Positions 7,493-34,135 of a DNA stretch of 41,494 nt are shown here, piece by piece. The DNA comes from a virus, in the IMG/VR virus record IMGVR_UViG_3300045988_005695. One strand, written 5' to 3'. The position numbers and the translations under genes are program-made. Below the pieces are notes generated by a model. The model was not told the origin of the DNA, ran no database searches, and saw only the letters and a list, made by a program, of their open reading frames with translations. Each line of letters starts with the position of its first letter. Position 1 is the first letter of the stretch.

Positions 7493-7522
7493 GGGCGTAG
7501 AGACCAACTCTACGCCCTTTTT
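7493..7522 (+). terminator. Rho-independent terminator
   Basis: GGGCGTAGAG-ACCAA-CTCTACGCCC followed by TTTTT. Confidence 0.65.
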
Positions 7523-7561
7523 CATCGGCACCGCAGCGTCCTGCGGAAACCTCCTCCTCCT

Positions 7562-7619
7562 GTTCTCGTGTTCTCCGGTGTGAATAAATATATTTATTCA
7601 CACACGGAGACACGAGAAC
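7562..7619. repeat. 58-bp imperfect palindrome centred on AATAAATATATTTATT
   Basis: GTTCTCGTGTTCTCCGGTGTGAATAAATA / TATTTATTCACACACGGAGACACGAGAAC. The arms match except for small indels. Confidence 0.8.
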
Positions 7620-7646
7620 GAAAGAATGAGGCAGAAAGGAGCGGCT

Positions 7647-27990: not shown

Positions 27991-28685
27991 GTGTCATGAA
28001 AGCGTCTGAACTCGTCAAAAAGCATATCGACGTCGCGAAAAACTACAAGACCGTCTACATGTGGGGCTGCTTCGGCTCGCCGGTGGGCGAGGGTATTATT
28101 TCCGAGAAAGCGAAGCAGTACCCGGACTGGTACACTGCAGCGAAGCAGGCCAGATACCGCGGCCTCATCGGCAAGGGATACTTTGGCTTTGACTGTGTGA
28201 ACCTGACAAAGGGCATCCTATGGGGCTGGAAGGGCGACAAGAGCGCCTACCACGGCGGCGCGCGCTATGCCGGAAACGCCGTCCCGGACGTCTCTGCCGA
28301 CGGCATGATCGCCAAGTGCAAGGACGTATCGTCCACCGGCTGGGATAAACTCGTGCCGGGCGAAGGCCTGTGGATGCCCGGGCATTGGGGCCTGTACATC
28401 GGCGACGGTCTGGCCGTTGAGTGCACGCCCATCTGGGAAGACGGCGTGCAGATCACTTGTGTTGGCAACATCGGCCTCAAAGGAGGCTACAACAGCCGCA
28501 AGTGGCAGAAACACGGGAAACTGCCGTGGGTCGACTACGACACCGAAACGGTTGACAAGACCGTCGAGGACGCCAAGAAGACCATCAAGGCAAAGGCCGG
28601 TCTCACCGACAACACCATCAAGTATCTCGCCGACTACAAGTACGGCGAAGATCTGCTGAAAAAACTGGCTGCAGCCATGAAGTAA
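27987..28685 (+). CDS. Endolysin, NlpC/P60-like cysteine peptidase
   Basis: GFDCVNLTKGILWG (Cys) and PGHWGLYIGDG (His). Start ATG at 27987. The ORF extension back to 27675 is spurious. Confidence 0.65.
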   Translation: MSVMKASELVKKHIDVAKNYKTVYMWGCFGSPVGEGIISEKAKQYPDWYTAAKQARYRGLIGKGYFGFDCVNLTKGILWGWKGDKSAYHGGARYAGNAVPDVSADGMIAKCKDVSSTGWDKLVPGEGLWMPGHWGLYIGDGLAVECTPIWEDGVQITCVGNIGLKGGYNSRKWQKHGKLPWVDYDTETVDKTVEDAKKTIKAKAGLTDNTIKYLADYKYGEDLLKKLAAAMK

Positions 28686-28698
28686 GGGGGGCGGGCCT

Positions 28699-28947
28699 AT
28701 GTCACCGCAGGCGCGCGCTAAGCTGCCGCCGGAGCTGGGCGGCCTGACGCGGAAGGACATGGAAGCCGTGATCTATCAGGCCAATCTCGGCCGCGAGAAC
28801 GCGCAGATTGCGCAGCTCTATTTCGTGGATAAGCTCCCGCAGGTTGATGTTGCGACAGAACTGTATCTCGGCCGCGCCACCGTGCAGCGGCGCTTGCCGG
28901 AGATCATGGCGAGGATGAAAGCCGCGTCCGGGAATCTCCCGAGCTGA
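28699..28947 (+). CDS. Sigma-70 region 4-like HTH protein
   Basis: NAQIAQLYFVDKLPQVDVATELYLGRATVQRRL resembles sigma region 4. Confidence 0.5.
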   Translation: MSPQARAKLPPELGGLTRKDMEAVIYQANLGRENAQIAQLYFVDKLPQVDVATELYLGRATVQRRLPEIMARMKAASGNLPS

Positions 28948-29033
28948 ACAAAAGTGATGCCGGTCTGATGCACAACTGAGGCACAAGGAATCGAAAAAAA
29001 GCCCATACTGGACACATCAAAGGAGTGTTCGGT

Positions 29034-29420
29034 ATGGGCTTTTCTTATTTCAATCCAAATCCCACCGGGCGGCAGGTCGGTGACTGCACCGTTCGAGCAA
29101 TCGCAAAGGCGACGGGAAATAGCTGGGATGAAACATATATCGGGCTGTGCTTGCAAGGCCTAATCTTGGGCGATCTTCCGAGTGCGAACAGTGTCTGGGG
29201 TGCGTACCTCCGGCAGCAGGGATTTACCCGGAACGTTGTGCCGGACACCTGCCCCGACTGCTACACGGTTGGTAAGTTTGCCGACGAGCACCCGCGTGGA
29301 ACGTATATTCTCGCCCTCTCCGGTCATGTGGTCTGCGTGCAGGATGGTGTAATTTACGACAGTTGGAACAGCGAGAACGAAATCCCGCTTTATTACTGGG
29401 TCAAAGAAACGGAGGAATAA
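29034..29420 (+). CDS. Hypothetical protein, possible papain-like Cys/His fold
   Basis: AAAGGAG RBS lies 8 nt upstream. GDCTVRAI (Cys), SGHVVCV (His) and DSWN are present. Confidence 0.4.
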   Translation: MGFSYFNPNPTGRQVGDCTVRAIAKATGNSWDETYIGLCLQGLILGDLPSANSVWGAYLRQQGFTRNVVPDTCPDCYTVGKFADEHPRGTYILALSGHVVCVQDGVIYDSWNSENEIPLYYWVKETEE

Positions 29421-29422
29421 AC

Positions 29423-29866
29423 ATGGCATATCCCTATTTCAATCCTTATTATCCGCAGCCGATGCCAGATAACCTCATGCAGATGCGGCAGATGCAGCAG
29501 CCACAGATGCAGCCCATGCAGCAGCCTATGCCGCAGCCAGTGCAACAGAACCCCATTGCGCAGGGCGGTGTGCAGTGGGTCAATGGCGAGCAAGAGGCGA
29601 GAGGTTATCTCATCGCGCCCAACTCTGCCGTTGCTCTGTGGGATTCCAGCGCGCCGACGGTGTACCTCAAACAGTCCGACGCAAGCGGCAAGCCGACGCT
29701 AAAGATTTATGACCTCGTAGAACGCGCAGAAACGGCTTCTAACGCGCCGCAAAAGCCGGGCGTGGAATTTGTCACCCGCGAGGAGTTTGACCGTCTGGCG
29801 GCGCTTGTAGGCGAAATAAAGGGCAAGAAGAAGCGCAAGGTTGAGGAGGACGAGGACGATGAATAA
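29423..29866 (+). CDS. Q/P/M-rich low-complexity protein with a globular C-terminal domain
   Basis: GGAGGA RBS. N-terminus YPQPMPDNLMQMRQMQQPQMQPMQQPMPQPVQQ. Poly-K/E tail. Confidence 0.5.
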   Translation: MAYPYFNPYYPQPMPDNLMQMRQMQQPQMQPMQQPMPQPVQQNPIAQGGVQWVNGEQEARGYLIAPNSAVALWDSSAPTVYLKQSDASGKPTLKIYDLVERAETASNAPQKPGVEFVTREEFDRLAALVGEIKGKKKRKVEEDEDDE

Positions 29867-30059
29867 TCCCTTTTTCGGTGCGCTCGGCGGCGGGAACGGC
29901 TTTATGCAAATGATGCAGCAGTTTCAGCAATTCAAGGCAAATTTTCAGGGCGACCCCAAAGCGGAGGTCGAAAAGCTCTTGCAAAGCGGCAAACTCTCGC
30001 AGGCGCAGTTAAACCAGCTACAGCAGATGGCAAAGCAATTCCAAAGTCTGATGCAATAA
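29859..30059 (+). CDS. Small Q-rich protein
   Basis: MNNPFFGALGGGNGFMQMMQQFQQFK...QLNQLQQMAKQFQSLMQ. Confidence 0.45.
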   Translation: MNNPFFGALGGGNGFMQMMQQFQQFKANFQGDPKAEVEKLLQSGKLSQAQLNQLQQMAKQFQSLMQ

Positions 30060-30142
30060 TTAAATATTTATAGCGTTTTCTTTAATTCTTTATCGTGGCC
30101 ACGATTTAGATAAAACTGACTTTAATTCAAAGGAGTGATACT

Positions 30143-30919
30143 ATGTCTCTTTCTGACGGCGGCGTTCAGGCCACTATGCCTGTTGCGCCAACCGGCATGA
30201 TGAACAGCGGCTTTGGCGGCTTCGGCGGCGATGGCGCGTGGTGGATCATCATTCTTTTCCTGTTTGTTTTCTGCGGCTGGGGAAACAACGGCTGGGGAAA
30301 CAACGGCAACAGCGGTGCTGCTGACAATTACGTCCTTGCAAGCGATTTTGCCACTCTTCAGCGCCAGATCGACAGCGCAGCATCGACGATCGAACGTAAA
30401 AGCGACATTACGCAGCAGGGCATCTGCGATGGCTTCTACTCCATGAACACTACGCTGCTGAACGGCTTTGCGGGCGTCAATCAGAACATGAACAGCGGTT
30501 TCCAGAATGCCGAGCTTTCCCGCTGCAACCAGCAGGCAGCTCTCATGCAGCAGCTCAACGCCATGCAGATGCAGGCCGCAGATTGCTGCTGCGAAAACCG
30601 TGCAGCTATCGCCCAGGTGCGCTACGACATGGCGACGCAGGCGTGCGACACGCGCAACACCGTGCAGAACGCCACGCGCGACATCATTGACGCGAACAAC
30701 CAGAACAGCCGCGCCATCCTCGACTTCCTGACGCAAAGCAAGCTGTCCGACCTCCAGACCGAGAATCAGAATCTGAAGCTGGCGGCATCTCAGGCCGCGC
30801 AGAACAACTATCTGATCTCGCAGCTGCGTCCGTGCCCTTCGCCTGCCTACATTACTTGTAACCCGTGGGCAGGCAGCGGTTACGGCGGCTGTGGCTGCAA
30901 TCAGGGTTGTGGCTGCTGA
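30143..30919 (+). CDS. Membrane protein with Gly-rich N-terminus, N/Q-rich coiled coil and Cys/Gly-rich C-terminus
   Basis: AAAGGAG RBS. GFGGFGGDGAWWIIILFLFVFCGWGNNGWGNNG is a TM segment. An internal CCC is present. The C-terminus is GSGYGGCGCNQGCGC. Confidence 0.6.
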   Translation: MSLSDGGVQATMPVAPTGMMNSGFGGFGGDGAWWIIILFLFVFCGWGNNGWGNNGNSGAADNYVLASDFATLQRQIDSAASTIERKSDITQQGICDGFYSMNTTLLNGFAGVNQNMNSGFQNAELSRCNQQAALMQQLNAMQMQAADCCCENRAAIAQVRYDMATQACDTRNTVQNATRDIIDANNQNSRAILDFLTQSKLSDLQTENQNLKLAASQAAQNNYLISQLRPCPSPAYITCNPWAGSGYGGCGCNQGCGC

Positions 30920-30988
30920 CAACTGCATAGCATAGCTTTTTCGTGACCTCACGAAAATGGTCGGCCCCGTGCCGATACTAACAACAAC

Positions 30989-31023
30989 GCGGCGGGGCAA
31001 TAGCCCTGCCGCTGTATTTTTAT
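30989..31023 (+). terminator. Rho-independent terminator
   Basis: GCGGCGGGGC-AATA-GCCCTGCCGC followed by TGTATTTTTAT. Confidence 0.6.
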
Positions 31024-31038
31024 GAAAGGAATGATTTT

Positions 31039-31461
31039 ATGGCTGAATTTACATCATCCGGGATTCAAACTGTCACCGCTGGGCAGAACGTCCCTCTGAT
31101 CTCCACGGCGGCTTGTGGAAAGCCGTGCATCGTACATCGCGAAGGCAGCGGGCTCGTTACGCTGCGCGGGCTTACGCAGCAATGCAAGGCGAAGTTCCGC
31201 GTATCATTTGGCGCGAATATCGCCGTCCCTACAGGCGGAACAGTAGGTGCCATTACCGCTGCGCTCGCAATCAACGGCGAACCTCTGAGCAGCGCCACAG
31301 CGACCGTAACCCCTGCGGCTGTTGAGAACTATTTCAACTTCTTCGTTTCCACATTCGTGGAAGTCCCGCGCGGCTGCTGCCTGACTGTAGCGGCGAAGAA
31401 CACCAGCGCGCAGGCGGTCAGTTTCGCAAATAGCAATATGATCGTCGAGCGCGTATCGTGA
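31039..31461 (+). CDS. TNF/C1q-like jelly-roll protein resembling the BclA C-terminal domain
   Basis: The alternating beta pattern, ALAINGEPLSSATATV, and the ending NSNMIVERV resemble the BclA-C family layout. No collagen repeats are present. Confidence 0.45.
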   Translation: MAEFTSSGIQTVTAGQNVPLISTAACGKPCIVHREGSGLVTLRGLTQQCKAKFRVSFGANIAVPTGGTVGAITAALAINGEPLSSATATVTPAAVENYFNFFVSTFVEVPRGCCLTVAAKNTSAQAVSFANSNMIVERVS

Positions 31462-31475
31462 AAGGAGGATGCAAT

Positions 31476-31847
31476 ATGTACGATTTGAGAAACCTGCGTG
31501 AAATGCTCTGCAAGGAGCTTGACGAAATCGCCGCCAAGCGCGAAATGTCTGTGGGAGATCTGGACGCGATCCAGAAGCTGACGAGTTCCATCAAGAATAC
31601 CTACAAGATCGAGATGGCTGAAGACGGCGGCTATTCCCGCGATAGCGAGTGGGAGGCGGATATGCGCGGTACTTACGGCCGGGGCAGCTCTTACCGTGGC
31701 CGCCGCCGTGACGCAATGGGCCGCTATACCCGCGCTGATGCCCGCGAGCATATGCGCGCGCAGCTGGACGATATGATGCGCGACGCGGATGACGATAAAA
31801 CCCGTGACGCGATCCGGCGCTGCATGGAGCAGATCGAGCGGGCATAA
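31476..31847 (+). CDS. Hypothetical charged protein (Arg/Asp-rich)
   Basis: AAAGGAGG RBS, then the ATG at 31476. Confidence 0.5.
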   Translation: MYDLRNLREMLCKELDEIAAKREMSVGDLDAIQKLTSSIKNTYKIEMAEDGGYSRDSEWEADMRGTYGRGSSYRGRRRDAMGRYTRADAREHMRAQLDDMMRDADDDKTRDAIRRCMEQIERA

Positions 31848-31858
31848 GGAGGCGCGAT

Positions 31859-32215
31859 ATGCTGGATAAAGCCGAGATCCGCAAGGAGATAGCGCGGCTG
31901 GAATATGAGGAATCCAGCTATCCAAACTATGCCAAACTCGCGAATCTGTACACGATCCGCAAGCAGATGCAGGAGGAAGAACAGGGCGCGCAAAACATAG
32001 CCGCTTTTGCTTATTCCGGCGATCCTGCACCAGCCCCTGTTTCCGAGCAGCCAGAAACAATAAGTGAGTACGGTGATAGCGATTTCCTGCGCACCGTAGC
32101 CGGAAAGGATCCTGCACGCGTCTGGCCAATCATGGACGAGTTGATGGATACAGTATTGCTTGTCAAGCGAAGCGTGTATGATTCCGTTATGCGGAAGATA
32201 TCCGATACAAGATAA
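31859..32215 (+). CDS. Hypothetical protein
   Basis: AGGAGG lies upstream. Last + strand ORF before attP. Confidence 0.5.
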   Translation: MLDKAEIRKEIARLEYEESSYPNYAKLANLYTIRKQMQEEEQGAQNIAAFAYSGDPAPAPVSEQPETISEYGDSDFLRTVAGKDPARVWPIMDELMDTVLLVKRSVYDSVMRKISDTR

Positions 32216-32219
32216 AACC

Positions 32220-32240
32220 GGTTACACTCTTATTACACTC
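32220..32240. repeat. Direct repeats GGTTACACTC / TTACACTC (candidate integrase arm sites, left)
   Basis: Two copies here and two at 32428-32449, all in the same orientation, flanking the tRNA-like core. Confidence 0.5.
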
Positions 32241-32299
32241 AAAAGCAAGAAAAACCGTTGAAATTACTGCGTTTTTTATTGAATGGGGTTCAAGAGGCC

Positions 32300-32327
32300 G
32301 CTGGTTCGAATCCAGTCACTCGGACCA
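32300..32327 (+). other. 3' fragment of a tRNA (T-arm, acceptor 3' strand, ACCA) = probable attP core
   Basis: GCTGG-TTCGAAT-CCAGT-CACTCGG-A-CCA. No matching 5' acceptor strand (CCGAGTG) occurs upstream, so this is not a complete tRNA. Confidence 0.65.
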
Positions 32328-32344
32328 ATGTAAAACGGGAAAAG

Positions 32345-32375
32345 CCCTGAAACTGCAAAGGTTTCAGGGTTTTTT
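32345..32375 (+). terminator. Rho-independent terminator downstream of the tRNA fragment
   Basis: CCCTGAAAC-TGCAAAG-GTTTCAGGG followed by TTTTTT. Confidence 0.65.
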
Positions 32376-32427
32376 CTTTTCTTCTCCGTAAAGGAAAAAT
32401 CACGCCAGATTTCGAGAAATCACGCTG

Positions 32428-32449
32428 GGTTACACTCCCGGTTACACTC
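32428..32449. repeat. Direct repeats GGTTACACTC x2 (candidate integrase arm sites, right)
   Basis: Tandem copies at 32428-32437 and 32440-32449. AAATCACGC is also repeated, at 32397 and 32417. Confidence 0.5.
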
Positions 32450-32460
32450 CACTTTTTATC

Positions 32461-33579
32461 CTAGATCGCGTTTATGATTTTCTTCAAGTCTTCCAGATTC
32501 ACGTCTTGGTAGTACCGGAGCATCTCAGGGCTTGCGTGGCCGATCAATTTCATTTTATCCTTGTCGGGCGCAACAACTTTTTTCATCAATGTCGCGAATG
32601 TGTGCCTGCATGTATGCGGCGAATATTTGTGGATTCCGTTTACCATTGGGTTTTCAATGCCGACGGCTTCTAGTGTGGGGTAAAAAACAGCGTCCCGGAA
32701 TCTATCATAGGAAAATTGGTTACCTTTTTCATCGCAGAACAACGCGCTGGACGCTTTTCCTGCGTAAAGACGATCAATAATGGGCTGGATCTTCGGGCTG
32801 ATGGGAACGACACGATTTTTTCCAGCCTCCGTTTTCGCACCACCGGTCAGCGTTTTTTTATTCGCATCGTAGCTGTCAACGCTCAGGGCCAGCAGTTCTG
32901 ACGGTCTGAAGCCGAGATAGCACATTGCATAAATATAATCCGCGAACGGAATTACGCCGACAGCGTCTCGTATTCTTTCAATCTGTTCTTGCGTAAAGCT
33001 TTCCCTCGCCGCTCCGAACTCTCCGCTGACAATCAGATATTGCCCTAAATTCAGTTCTGCGTAGCCGCGCGGAACTGCGTACTTGTACATAAGCCCTGCT
33101 AACGCTTTCATGTTTTCTTTTGTTCTTCTTCCTCTCGGGCATTCGTCCATGCATTCCTGCAAATCATCTATTTCTATATCTTCCAGTTTCCAGAACTCAA
33201 CTTGATAAAAGTATTTTTCGGCTGATTTGTAGCAATCAATTGTGGATTTCCCGGCTCTGTGAGTGGGGAGCCACATTTCGTAGAGTTCACGCCATGTAAT
33301 TGCTTTTTCACGCTTCTTCTGCCCGGCCAACATCGGCAGGTAGTCAAGCGCTTCTTTTTTTGTGCGGAATCCGCATTTCCGAGCGACAACGCGCTTTACA
33401 GATCCGTTTTCTTCTCGGTATCCCTTTGTTATTTCCGCTACCCATTTATCGTTGCGCCGGTATACCGAGCCCGTGCCGTTCCCGCGCTTTGTGGCCCTTT
33501 TTGTTTGCTGTTTTTTTCCGCACCAGCAACAGTAGGGCGCGCCGTCGGGGATTTCTTTTTTACACTTGATGCACTCCAT
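32461..33579 (-). CDS. int: Tyrosine recombinase / integrase with N-terminal zinc ribbon
   Basis: MECIKCKKEIPDGAPYCCWCG. C-terminal HTCRHTFAT ... LIGHAS ... LRYY. The ORF maximum start is 33609. Confidence 0.9.
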   Translation of the reverse strand: MECIKCKKEIPDGAPYCCWCGKKQQTKRATKRGNGTGSVYRRNDKWVAEITKGYREENGSVKRVVARKCGFRTKKEALDYLPMLAGQKKREKAITWRELYEMWLPTHRAGKSTIDCYKSAEKYFYQVEFWKLEDIEIDDLQECMDECPRGRRTKENMKALAGLMYKYAVPRGYAELNLGQYLIVSGEFGAARESFTQEQIERIRDAVGVIPFADYIYAMCYLGFRPSELLALSVDSYDANKKTLTGGAKTEAGKNRVVPISPKIQPIIDRLYAGKASSALFCDEKGNQFSYDRFRDAVFYPTLEAVGIENPMVNGIHKYSPHTCRHTFATLMKKVVAPDKDKMKLIGHASPEMLRYYQDVNLEDLKKIINAI

Positions 33580-34135
33580 GTTTCCCCCCACGTTCTTTTC
33601 GGATTGCATAGAAAGTAATTGCCGAAGCCAGCGCTGAACCTACAATCAGGGCAATGCAACCCCATGCAGCTACGGACAAATCTCCGTCGCGAATGAGACC
33701 TACGCTCCGAATCTGTGCATCCGTCGCAAGGCAGGCAATCAGAGAAAAAGAGAGCAGCATACAAAACAGGGCGAGAACGTAACACATTGTATGTGTAGAC
33801 CTTATCTGTGCGCTCTGCGCGGCTGTTGTTGCCTCCAGCTTGGCGTTTTTGATCTCGACATGATGAATCTGCTTGGTCAGTTCTTCCGGGATTTCTGCGG
33901 GTTTGACAAGCCCGCACAGCTCATCCAGCGACAGCCCGAGAACGCGGCATAGCGCGGCAGAATTGTACAGTTTCGGGTCTTGCTGTGTTCCTGCGCAGAG
34001 CTTCGTCACAGCCGATCTGGAAACGCCGGATTCTTCGACAAGCCTGTCGATGGTGTAATGCTGATCTTCCTTCGCCCGCTTTATGTTCCTCTGATATGCA
34101 GAAAGATATGGGGCGAGTTCCTGAATCGCCGACAT
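33560..34135 (-). CDS. Membrane-anchored XRE-family HTH regulator
   Basis: TIDRLVEESGVSRSAVTKLCAG is an HTH. Two C-terminal TM segments. GGAGG RBS. Confidence 0.7.
   Translation of the reverse strand: MSAIQELAPYLSAYQRNIKRAKEDQHYTIDRLVEESGVSRSAVTKLCAGTQQDPKLYNSAALCRVLGLSLDELCGLVKPAEIPEELTKQIHHVEIKNAKLEATTAAQSAQIRSTHTMCYVLALFCMLLSFSLIACLATDAQIRSVGLIRDGDLSVAAWGCIALIVGSALASAITFYAIRKERGGKHGVHQV

Follow-up and report, generated by a model that had tools for sequence, protein, structure and literature searches.

Judged by predicted fold and by architecture, the known system that the phage genes described here most resemble is the exosporium nap of the Bacillus cereus group, with its proteins BclA, ExsFA (BxpB) and F-Anchor. 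The phage genes are found in IMG/VR virus record IMGVR_UViG_3300045988_005695, a stretch of 41,494 nucleotides that is called the window from here on. At their centre is a gene for a protein of 258 amino acids (aa), called X, at 30143-30919 on the forward strand.

The exosporium nap uses a long, trimeric rod-like protein, which is joined to a trimer with the TNF fold via a Pro-rich peptide. Its components do not have signal peptides. Cys-rich, low-complexity partner proteins are also involved. The ExsF trimer binds three Pro-rich leader peptides of the trimeric F-Anchor or BclA, and does so in the clefts between its subunits (PMC12357932).

Much of this has a likeness in the window. The gene following X encodes TNF140, with a predicted TNF/C1q jellyroll fold like that of the nap proteins (TM-score 0.68-0.78). 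A rod joined to this fold via a Pro-rich stretch is proposed for X, and the module proteins also come without signal peptides. There are clear differences as well. The stalk of BclA is a collagen triple helix, whereas that of X would be an alpha-helical hendecad rod with a hydrophobic membrane anchor. Unlike the BclA system, X has no exosporium leader (no TIGR03720 match) and no collagen repeat. TNF140 is only 10-14% identical to the exosporium proteins, and does not match Pfam BclA_C. Also, the genes of the module are viral, and some of the phages that carry them have non-sporulating hosts (crAss, Negativicutes).

The reading preferred here is that X forms an anchored rod, capped by a TNF-like trimer. 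The probability of this structural model is put at roughly 0.4. A wider proposal is more tentative: a self-assembling module of gut phages of many kinds, Clostridia siphoviruses and crAss-like phages among them, in which a membrane-tethered, Cys-stapled hendecad rod and an exosporium-type TNF trimer are helped by prion-like Q/P-rich proteins and a novel Cys-His-Asp hydrolase, under control of a protein resembling sigma region 4 and of RNA elements. If true, this would be a new kind of envelope structure built by phages, without a characterised counterpart. Neither the module nor its architecture or cis-elements have been described, and literature searches on DUF7841, on the PHROG identifiers and on the names of the C. 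perfringens phages turned up nothing relevant.

The X module and its proteins

The window looks like a complete genome of a temperate siphovirus, with a terminase, an SPP1-type portal, a minor capsid protein 2, a protein of tape-measure size and tail genes. On the 3' side of the tail genes there are small membrane proteins and a lysin, followed by the X region and then by a convergent tyrosine integrase gene (32461-33609, reverse strand). A close relative of this phage is integrated in a contig of 173 kb, where the adjoining host MurA is 84% identical to a protein of an Oscillospiraceae metagenome-assembled genome (MAG). In this temperate Oscillospiraceae siphovirus, the X module lies at the distal end of the block of late and lysis genes.

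The genes of the X region are:
28699..28947, forward strand: sigma-70 region-4-like helix-turn-helix (HTH) protein, 82 aa, 14 nt after the endolysin gene
29025..29420, forward strand: papain-like protein of 131 aa, phrog_3754 (E 1e-32), with Cys21, His101 and Asp112 invariant in alignment A2
29423..29866, forward strand: PQ147, phrog_21718, whose N-terminus is rich in P, Q, Y and M, with ~55 aa of conserved core and a charged tail (alignment A7)
29859..30059, forward strand: Q66, a small G/M/Q-rich protein, phrog_22984, directly upstream of X
30143..30919, forward strand: X, 258 aa, phrog_16490, with ribosome-binding site (RBS) AGGAG 8 nt upstream
31039..31461, forward strand: TNF140, 140 aa, phrog_20016, a predicted stand-alone TNF/C1q jellyroll with an invariant GCC motif
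31458..31847, forward strand: R129, helical, with an R/D/Y/G-rich central region, syntenic in the clade of the window, weak phrog_28802 match
31859..32215, forward strand: H118, helical, the last gene of the module, syntenic in the clade of the window

Gene order has been compared in two ways. The first synteny comparison covers 39 loci from genomes and phage records. In most of those that are long enough, the genes for the proteins of 131, 147 and 66 aa, X, and the proteins of 140, 129 and 118 aa keep this order, and they do so even where the identity of X is only ~30%. The other comparison is an unbiased clustering of the open reading frames (ORFs) around X, for 120 loci, many of them redundant. 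PQ147 is the most constant partner, with its family upstream of X in 112 of the 120 loci, while the 140-aa family directly follows X in 95. Two families of small Q-rich proteins, Q74 and Q66, are found directly upstream of X in 56 and 24 loci, respectively, and a small sigma-r4-like HTH gene precedes the module in at least 65.

The core order is invariant: PQ147, a Q-rich protein, X, and then a partner which is either TNF140 or an alternative. The accessory genes vary. Some modules have R129 and H118, others a DUF7841 protein, and some add a small HExxH protein. The papain-like gene can be placed before or after the core. Such variants are seen in L014 (7929-8243), L016 (8378-8803) and L018 (7954-8178), and downstream of X in L025, L033, L036 and L037. 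Their HExxH proteins have weak matches of the Peptidase_M78/ImmA-like and SprT-like kinds, and their DUF7841-domain proteins are often fused to long low-complexity regions rich in R, D, Y and G.

The module is usually located 3' of tail or lysis genes. In C. perfringens phages however it is between a KilA/antirepressor gene and recombination genes, and on some contigs it abuts primase genes. Because it is spread over unrelated phage types and appears to have a dedicated HTH gene, this arrangement points to an autonomous accessory function, and not to a fitted part of the virion or a recently acquired single-gene moron. The module is common in human-gut phages, and its order is kept from Oscillospiraceae prophages to crAss-like phages. 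Very likely it performs a general step of phage biology that has not been described. PADLOC finds no match for any of the eight module proteins, so by that test this is not a known anti-phage defence system.

X itself matches the hidden Markov model (HMM) of phrog_16490 (E 2.1e-45, X residues 1-227 versus positions 1-224 of 286 in the profile). PHROGs lists this family as 'unknown function', which means that the X gene is already present in databases. The neighbours of X likewise each match a separate PHROG without known function. Pfam, NCBIfam, PADLOC and PDB sequences (E<=1) deliver nothing for X beyond sub-threshold noise. This bears out a first-pass annotation of this DNA, made from its letters, that could not assign the product to a named family.

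Relatives of X are plentiful. In a protein collection clustered at 90% identity there are at least 7,984 matches, none of which has a name or a Pfam domain, and the exact sequence of X is found on 404 contigs. An exhaustive search of 50%-identity representatives yields 1,797 clusters with E<=1e-3, of which 898 reach E<=1e-10; their length is nearly always 230-300 aa. Carriers include human-gut phage contigs, phages from lemur and rodent guts, C. perfringens phages and crAss-like phages. Among genomes the carriers are mostly Clostridia, with a few Negativicutes and others. Even if the module should be an ordinary accessory fibre or exclusion factor, thousands of 'hypothetical' phage genes would gain an annotation.

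For the first-pass annotation, homologues annotated as tail or lysis proteins would have counted against its reading. The X homologues carry no such annotation, and one, from crAss cr115_1 (L002 3406-4326), is labelled 'spike protein/glycoprotein'. This homologue has the hydrophobic N-terminus and the PCPVPAYLTCNPF motif of X. An in-frame stop must be read through (recoded) to reach its GYGY...GCGCGC tail. When translated with table 11, partner genes in a Christensenella MAG (L019, 1538-1957) and a Mollicutes MAG (L024, 6784-7206) are also interrupted by in-frame stops. Carriers L002, L019 and L024 may therefore recode stop codons or use an alternative genetic code. In Clostridium phage CPD1 (L120, 3047-4294), the position of X is held by two adjacent genes of ~206 aa, CPD1_038 and CPD1_039, perhaps copies of the rod gene that arose by tandem duplication.

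The X protein starts with a short acidic N-tail, followed by a predicted Gly/Trp-flanked hydrophobic anchor at ~32-46, a predicted rod at 69-228, a Pro-rich motif at ~230-243 and a GCGC tail. K and R are nearly absent from the N-tail (on average 0.45 K+R versus 2.7 D+E). The first-pass annotation had divided the protein into three parts, namely a Gly-rich membrane start, a long region with cysteines and a distinct terminus, and its quoted segments are correct in translation. It proposed looking for homologues with the same N- and C-terminal features. In an alignment of 42 diverse members (A1), all three parts turn out to be conserved features of the family. The N-terminal part has a Gly-rich segment, WW, a hydrophobic stretch of ~15 residues and GWGNNGFGG. 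The long region has the motifs GLCDGFY (C95), CCC(E/D)N (C148-150), NYNxAxxxC (C168), TRDIIDNQNANTRAILD and LAASQAAQNxYLxxQLRP; C95, C148-150 and C168 are the conserved cysteines of the rod. The C-terminal end has P(V/S)PAYxxxNP(Y/W) and GCGC, and includes the conserved RPxPVPAYxxxNPY motif.

Two descriptions from the first-pass annotation do not hold. The start of X had been called YjcZ-like, and no YjcZ model matches X in Pfam (E<=1) or NCBIfam (E<=0.1). YjcZ-like peptides are also some 5 times shorter than X. The ~190 aa that follow had been called a coiled coil. The family-averaged hydrophobicity of residues 69-228 instead has an 11/3 periodicity, with a power of 56.5 at 3.67 residues versus 4.5 at 3.5. 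The phase is nearly constant, which leads to one narrow apolar stripe of L, A, I and M. The lengths of the insertions that were inspected, for example 7 and 18 residues, fit a hendecad repeat. Judged by this periodicity, the helix is a hendecad (11/3) rod rather than a coiled coil of heptads.

In the CCC motif, C149 is on the apolar stripe and C148 and C150 are on opposite flanks. This geometry would suit rings of inter-chain disulfides in a parallel bundle. The AlphaFold2 model of X has a helix at 34-43 (transmembrane) and a single helix at 69-228, with a mean pLDDT of 60 and a pTM of 0.27. High confidence is confined to residues 160-230.

The AlphaFold2 model of TNF140 is all-beta and confident (pLDDT 89.9, pTM 0.83). 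Foldseek ranks F-BclA-CTD, BxpB, ExsF/ExsFA and BclA-CTD best, with a probability of 1.0 at the TM-scores and identities given above; the PDB matches are 9h38, 8d02, 9h3d, 7r1m and 1wck. More weakly, TNF140 also matches phage spike and fibre knobs, such as the phi812 central spike (9eul) and the A-1(L) fibre. The nearest BFVD entries are phage proteins of 130-145 aa that stand alone, some of which are labelled 'BclA protein', and there are many tail-fibre entries too. From its model, TNF140 can be assigned with confidence to the TNF/C1q jellyrolls, nearest to the exosporium proteins BclA-CTD and ExsFA/BxpB. It has no match in Pfam (including BclA_C), NCBIfam or PDB sequences, and no GXY repeats. 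Its family has at least 8,000 candidates in a protein search at 90% identity, and comes without a name, Pfam domain or literature.

The other partners are less easily placed. The invariant Cys, His and Asp of the 131-aa protein suggest a putative papain-like hydrolase. Its family has cysteine-protease matches only below threshold (Peptidase_Prp, C23), and there is no PDB sequence or profile match, nor a Pfam C39 match in 19 members at E<=1. PQ147 also has no PDB match. The 82-aa HTH protein is a candidate regulator dedicated to the module; its matches are weak (Sigma70_r4 E 0.004, TIGR02937 E 8e-4, phrog_3512/36). None of the partner proteins has a hydrophobic segment, a signal-peptide-like N-terminus or a lipobox.

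Palindromes and putative hairpins around X

The elements below lie around X and at the ends of the module:
28994..29046: inverted repeat with 22-nt arms that are 86% complementary, terminator-like, splitting the lysis and HTH genes from the module
30092..30105, forward strand: dyad ATCGTGGCCACGAT, followed by a -10-like AT-rich box at 30107-30115
30938..30957, forward strand: HP1, TTTTCGTGA-CC-TCACGAAAA, the first hairpin in the spacer between X and the 140-aa gene
30961..30975, forward strand: HP2, UCGGC-cccgu-GCCGA, with conserved flanks AUGgUC and GAUACU
30989..31023, forward strand: HP3, a GC-rich intrinsic terminator with T-run; the stem at 30989-31012 has 10 bp, of which 9 are GC pairs
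32337..32377, forward strand: strong terminator with an 18-bp stem, closing the module ahead of the convergent integrase gene

The first-pass annotation had the ORF, the upstream gap, its palindrome and its repeats at exactly the right coordinates, and the same goes for the downstream palindrome and the terminator. The gap (30060-30142) measures 83 nt and has a GC content of 28%. Within the window, perfect palindromes of 14 nt are found 3 times where 3.0 are expected. Palindromes with 9-nt arms and a 2-nt centre are a rarer type, with 2 observed versus 0.2 expected. The palindromes matter because their position is conserved across related loci, and not because of such statistics within the window.

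This conservation is clear upstream. ATCGTGGCCACGAT is identical in the window and in L004, L010, L012, L013 and L015, and four of these have an X that is only 52-65% identical to that of the window. Other lineages have different symmetric sequences at this site, with centres of 0-12 nt, and with T·G wobbles in three lineages. Some 25-40 nt ahead of the start codon, nearly all lineages have the dyad next to a -10-like box (T[G/A]nATATAA, in some cases a perfect TGnTATAAT). A consensus scan of the gap reports no sigma-70 promoter. The dyad would act as a conserved hairpin or, alternatively, as an operator that overlaps with an extended -10 promoter. Across lineages, the comparison supports a conserved cis-element directly upstream of X.

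The direct repeats TTTAATTC (at 30081 and 30121) are a different matter. Three copies are found in the window versus 0.4 expected, and the repeat was rejected as an element: the gap is AT-rich, the repeats are absent from the near-identical prophage L004, and they are probably due to chance.

Downstream, 15 lineages from the clade of the window share one layout of the ~120-nt spacer: HP1, HP2, a GC-rich terminator with T-run and a GAAAGGA RBS. RNAalifold recovers HP2 and the terminator, with 7 of 14 pairs changed on both sides, plus G·U pairs. HP3 has nine pairs with compensatory changes. HP1 forms at the same site in all 15 lineages, with stems as varied as CGUG/CACG, CCCC/GGGG, GUCG/CGAC, UUCC/GGAA and UCGC/GCGA. 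A more distant clade has a different but analogous pair of hairpins, the IMG/VR clade has an analogous terminator after X, and in a minority of lineages X and the partner gene are just 15-30 nt apart. X does then have its own terminator, as the first-pass annotation said; it is intrinsic, and conserved with compensatory changes. HP3 is likely an attenuator between X and the downstream genes.

Directly before HP2 there is a conserved ATG (TTG in some lineages) plus GTC, which opens an ORF of 22 codons (within 30956-31028). As a coding sequence this ORF was rejected, with a length that varies from 3-8 codons to more than 25 elsewhere and stem changes that are non-synonymous. The ATG-GTC stretch is more likely an RNA motif than a peptide.

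The first-pass annotation noted that both palindromes share a core, and suggested that one DNA-binding protein controls the unit. TCGTG-N0-6-CACGA is indeed found only twice in the 41.5 kb, on either side of X, while 0.39 are expected; two or more are seen in 4 out of 100 shuffles. But the shared TCGTG/CACGA core is specific to the lineage. In L010 and L012 the upstream palindrome is identical and the downstream hairpins are unrelated, and L001 and L007 differ in both. Because the upstream and downstream elements vary independently, the idea of twin operators is not supported. From such variation, the palindromes are best read as putative RNA hairpins that bracket the X cistron, rather than as sites for one DNA-binding protein. 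The conserved hairpins are candidates for new cis-regulatory RNA elements. A scan of 28600-32500 with Rfam has as its sole match a sub-threshold Thr_leader at the terminal terminator, which is taken as chance.

The 3' arm of the inverted repeat at 28994-29046 reaches into the start codon of the papain-like gene, so that the repeat may serve in termination or in the control of translation. The terminator-like site is scored on the reverse strand.

The proposed structure and its alternatives

The structural model builds on what is shown for the anatomy of X, for gene order, for the partner's fold and for hairpin conservation, and from these the assembly steps are inferred. X would form a parallel, probably trimeric rod about 24 nm long. 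This rod would be stapled by inter-chain cysteines of the CCC motif, and tethered to the membrane by the Gly/Trp-flanked N-terminal anchor. At the distal end, the Pro-rich motif and the GCGC tail would dock onto the TNF-like trimer and cross-link with it. Docking of X and TNF140 is proposed because of the precedent of peptide binding by ExsF (PMC12357932) and because of the RPxPVPAYxxxNPY motif in X.

Because no partner is exported, assembly would take place on the cytoplasmic side (N-out, C-in), or there would be exposure only at lysis. Assembly or maturation would be the task of the Q/P-rich proteins and the Cys-His-Asp hydrolase. The 5' hairpin, together with HP1, HP2 and the leaky terminator on the 3' side, would stabilise the X mRNA and attenuate read-through, making X the most abundant product of the unit. 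As for its role, an envelope function at or after lysis, for example masking or adhesion, is a working guess. The link to the exosporium fold and the rod architecture do lead to testable hypotheses, on complex formation, localisation and Cys cross-linking.

Several things speak against this model. The interaction of X and TNF140 is drawn by analogy, and disulfide stapling is uncertain in strictly anaerobic hosts. The AlphaFold2 model of X is poor over residues 69-155 (pLDDT 47-59), and because of this the single rod and the oligomeric state of X are only inferred. Topology analysis of X gives no positive-inside signal. Some 15-20% of lineages encode another protein of ~130 aa after X, which starts with MxCxxxCxxC; hhalign of this alternative against TNF140 returns a probability of 0.5%, which shows no relationship, and the alternative has no PDB match either. 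On the RNA side, the folding energies of the upstream hairpin are modest (median z ~ -1.1), and the box after the dyad resembles an extended -10, which makes an operator/promoter reading possible.

The first-pass annotation itself took X to be a self-contained moron. In that case X would serve lysogenic conversion: transcribed in the lysogen from a promoter of its own, under a phage regulator acting through the palindromes, it would endow the host with a trait of its surface or membrane. The module does occupy the classic cargo slot from lysin to attachment site, beside the integrase, where morons are found. Like morons, X has an AT-rich upstream gap with a -10-like box, which in some lineages is perfect, and a strong terminator directly after the gene. 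There is also a small HTH gene upstream. Morons are however independently inserted single genes, while X is never alone: with 3-6 partner genes in fixed order over ~120 loci, it always sits within a block that persists down to ~30% identity of X. Its GC content (0.56-0.60) does not deviate but equals that of the flanking phage. The supposed operators vary independently and behave like RNA hairpins, the same module is present in crAss-like phages and beside early replication and recombination genes, and the partners lack export signals. That X is a moron is considered unlikely.

No better are the chances of an accessory fibre or needle of the virion. X would be its trimeric rod, the TNF-like protein its distal knob, and the Gly-rich hydrophobic end a tip that is membrane-active at infection. 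The Sf6 needle unites a coiled coil with a TNF-like knob (PMC3741392), and in general the tail needles of P22/Sf6 type (gp26 family) and fibre knobs share a long and probably trimeric rod with a TNF-like distal domain. The spike, fibre and BFVD tail-fibre matches of TNF140 fit this as well, as do the orientation of the module genes, which is that of the late genes, and the crAss homologue labelled 'spike protein', which is just upstream of tail genes. But in the X module the rod and knob are separate polypeptides, the N-terminus is hydrophobic and Gly-rich, and PDB searches find no sequence similarity to any solved virion protein. The module is downstream of holin and lysin and outside the structural block, and in the C. 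perfringens phages it is among KilA and recombination genes. It is common to phages of unrelated morphotypes, which better fits an autonomous function, and it has an HTH gene of its own.

Less probable again is an accessory role in lysis or egress, in which X would be spanin-like or envelope-disrupting and act with holin and endolysin. Rz/Rz1 spanins have an N-terminal anchor, a long helix with Cys and a Pro-rich C-terminus, which X recalls, and like the Rz-type i-spanins X is near the holin and endolysin genes. The module follows the lysis cassette in both the window and crAss cr115_1, and the HTH gene directly adjoins that for the endolysin. Against this, the hosts are mainly Oscillospiraceae and other Clostridia, mostly monoderm, with no outer membrane to fuse. 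The module has no lipobox and no o-spanin lipoprotein partner, the helix of X is much longer and hendecad, and crAss cr115_1 already carries an LysB/Rz-like gene. A complexity of seven genes, with a TNF-like partner, has no counterpart in spanin systems. X does not resemble a class I fusion protein either, given no PDB match at E<=1, no C-terminal transmembrane segment and a single hendecad rod.

Least probable, and rather remote, is a released factor, membrane-active and targeted to a receptor. Its leader of the double-glycine type (consensus LSLADIAAVTGG) would be cut by the Cys-His-Asp protease, with the TNF trimer as targeting head. Cleavage would expose a Gly/Trp-rich hydrophobic peptide, and a leader-like LSLADIAAVTGG consensus is present in much of the X family. 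C39 domains have a Cys/His/Asp spacing like that of the 131-aa protein, in which Cys is followed by ~80 aa, His, 11 aa and Asp, and the family of this protein has its weak cysteine-protease matches. The X of the window however lacks the Asp and GG positions of the consensus, no C39 match is found in Pfam or PDB, the presence of the protease is not correlated with the N-terminal subtype of X, and no transporter gene is present. Maturation of the C39/double-glycine kind was rejected: the HMMs do not support it and the N-terminus of the window's X does not fit.

Other features of the window

Two further observations concern regions away from the X module. The first is a region at 7494-7620, which has a terminator-like hairpin (7494-7520) and, behind it, a large inverted repeat whose arms measure ~27 nt (TTCTCGTGTTCTCCGGTGTGAATAAATAT / ATTTATTCACACACGGAGACACGAGAA). 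This region is directly 5' of a small gene that precedes the terminase, and holds TCGTG and CACGA half-sites ~40 nt apart. The inverted repeat may serve to control the late operon or the packaging region.

The other is a gene at 33560-34135 on the reverse strand, which overlaps the integrase gene. Its product has an HTH-like N-terminal domain and hydrophobic C-terminal segments. It is predicted to be a repressor-like protein with a membrane anchor, and such a protein would be unusual in a lysogeny switch.

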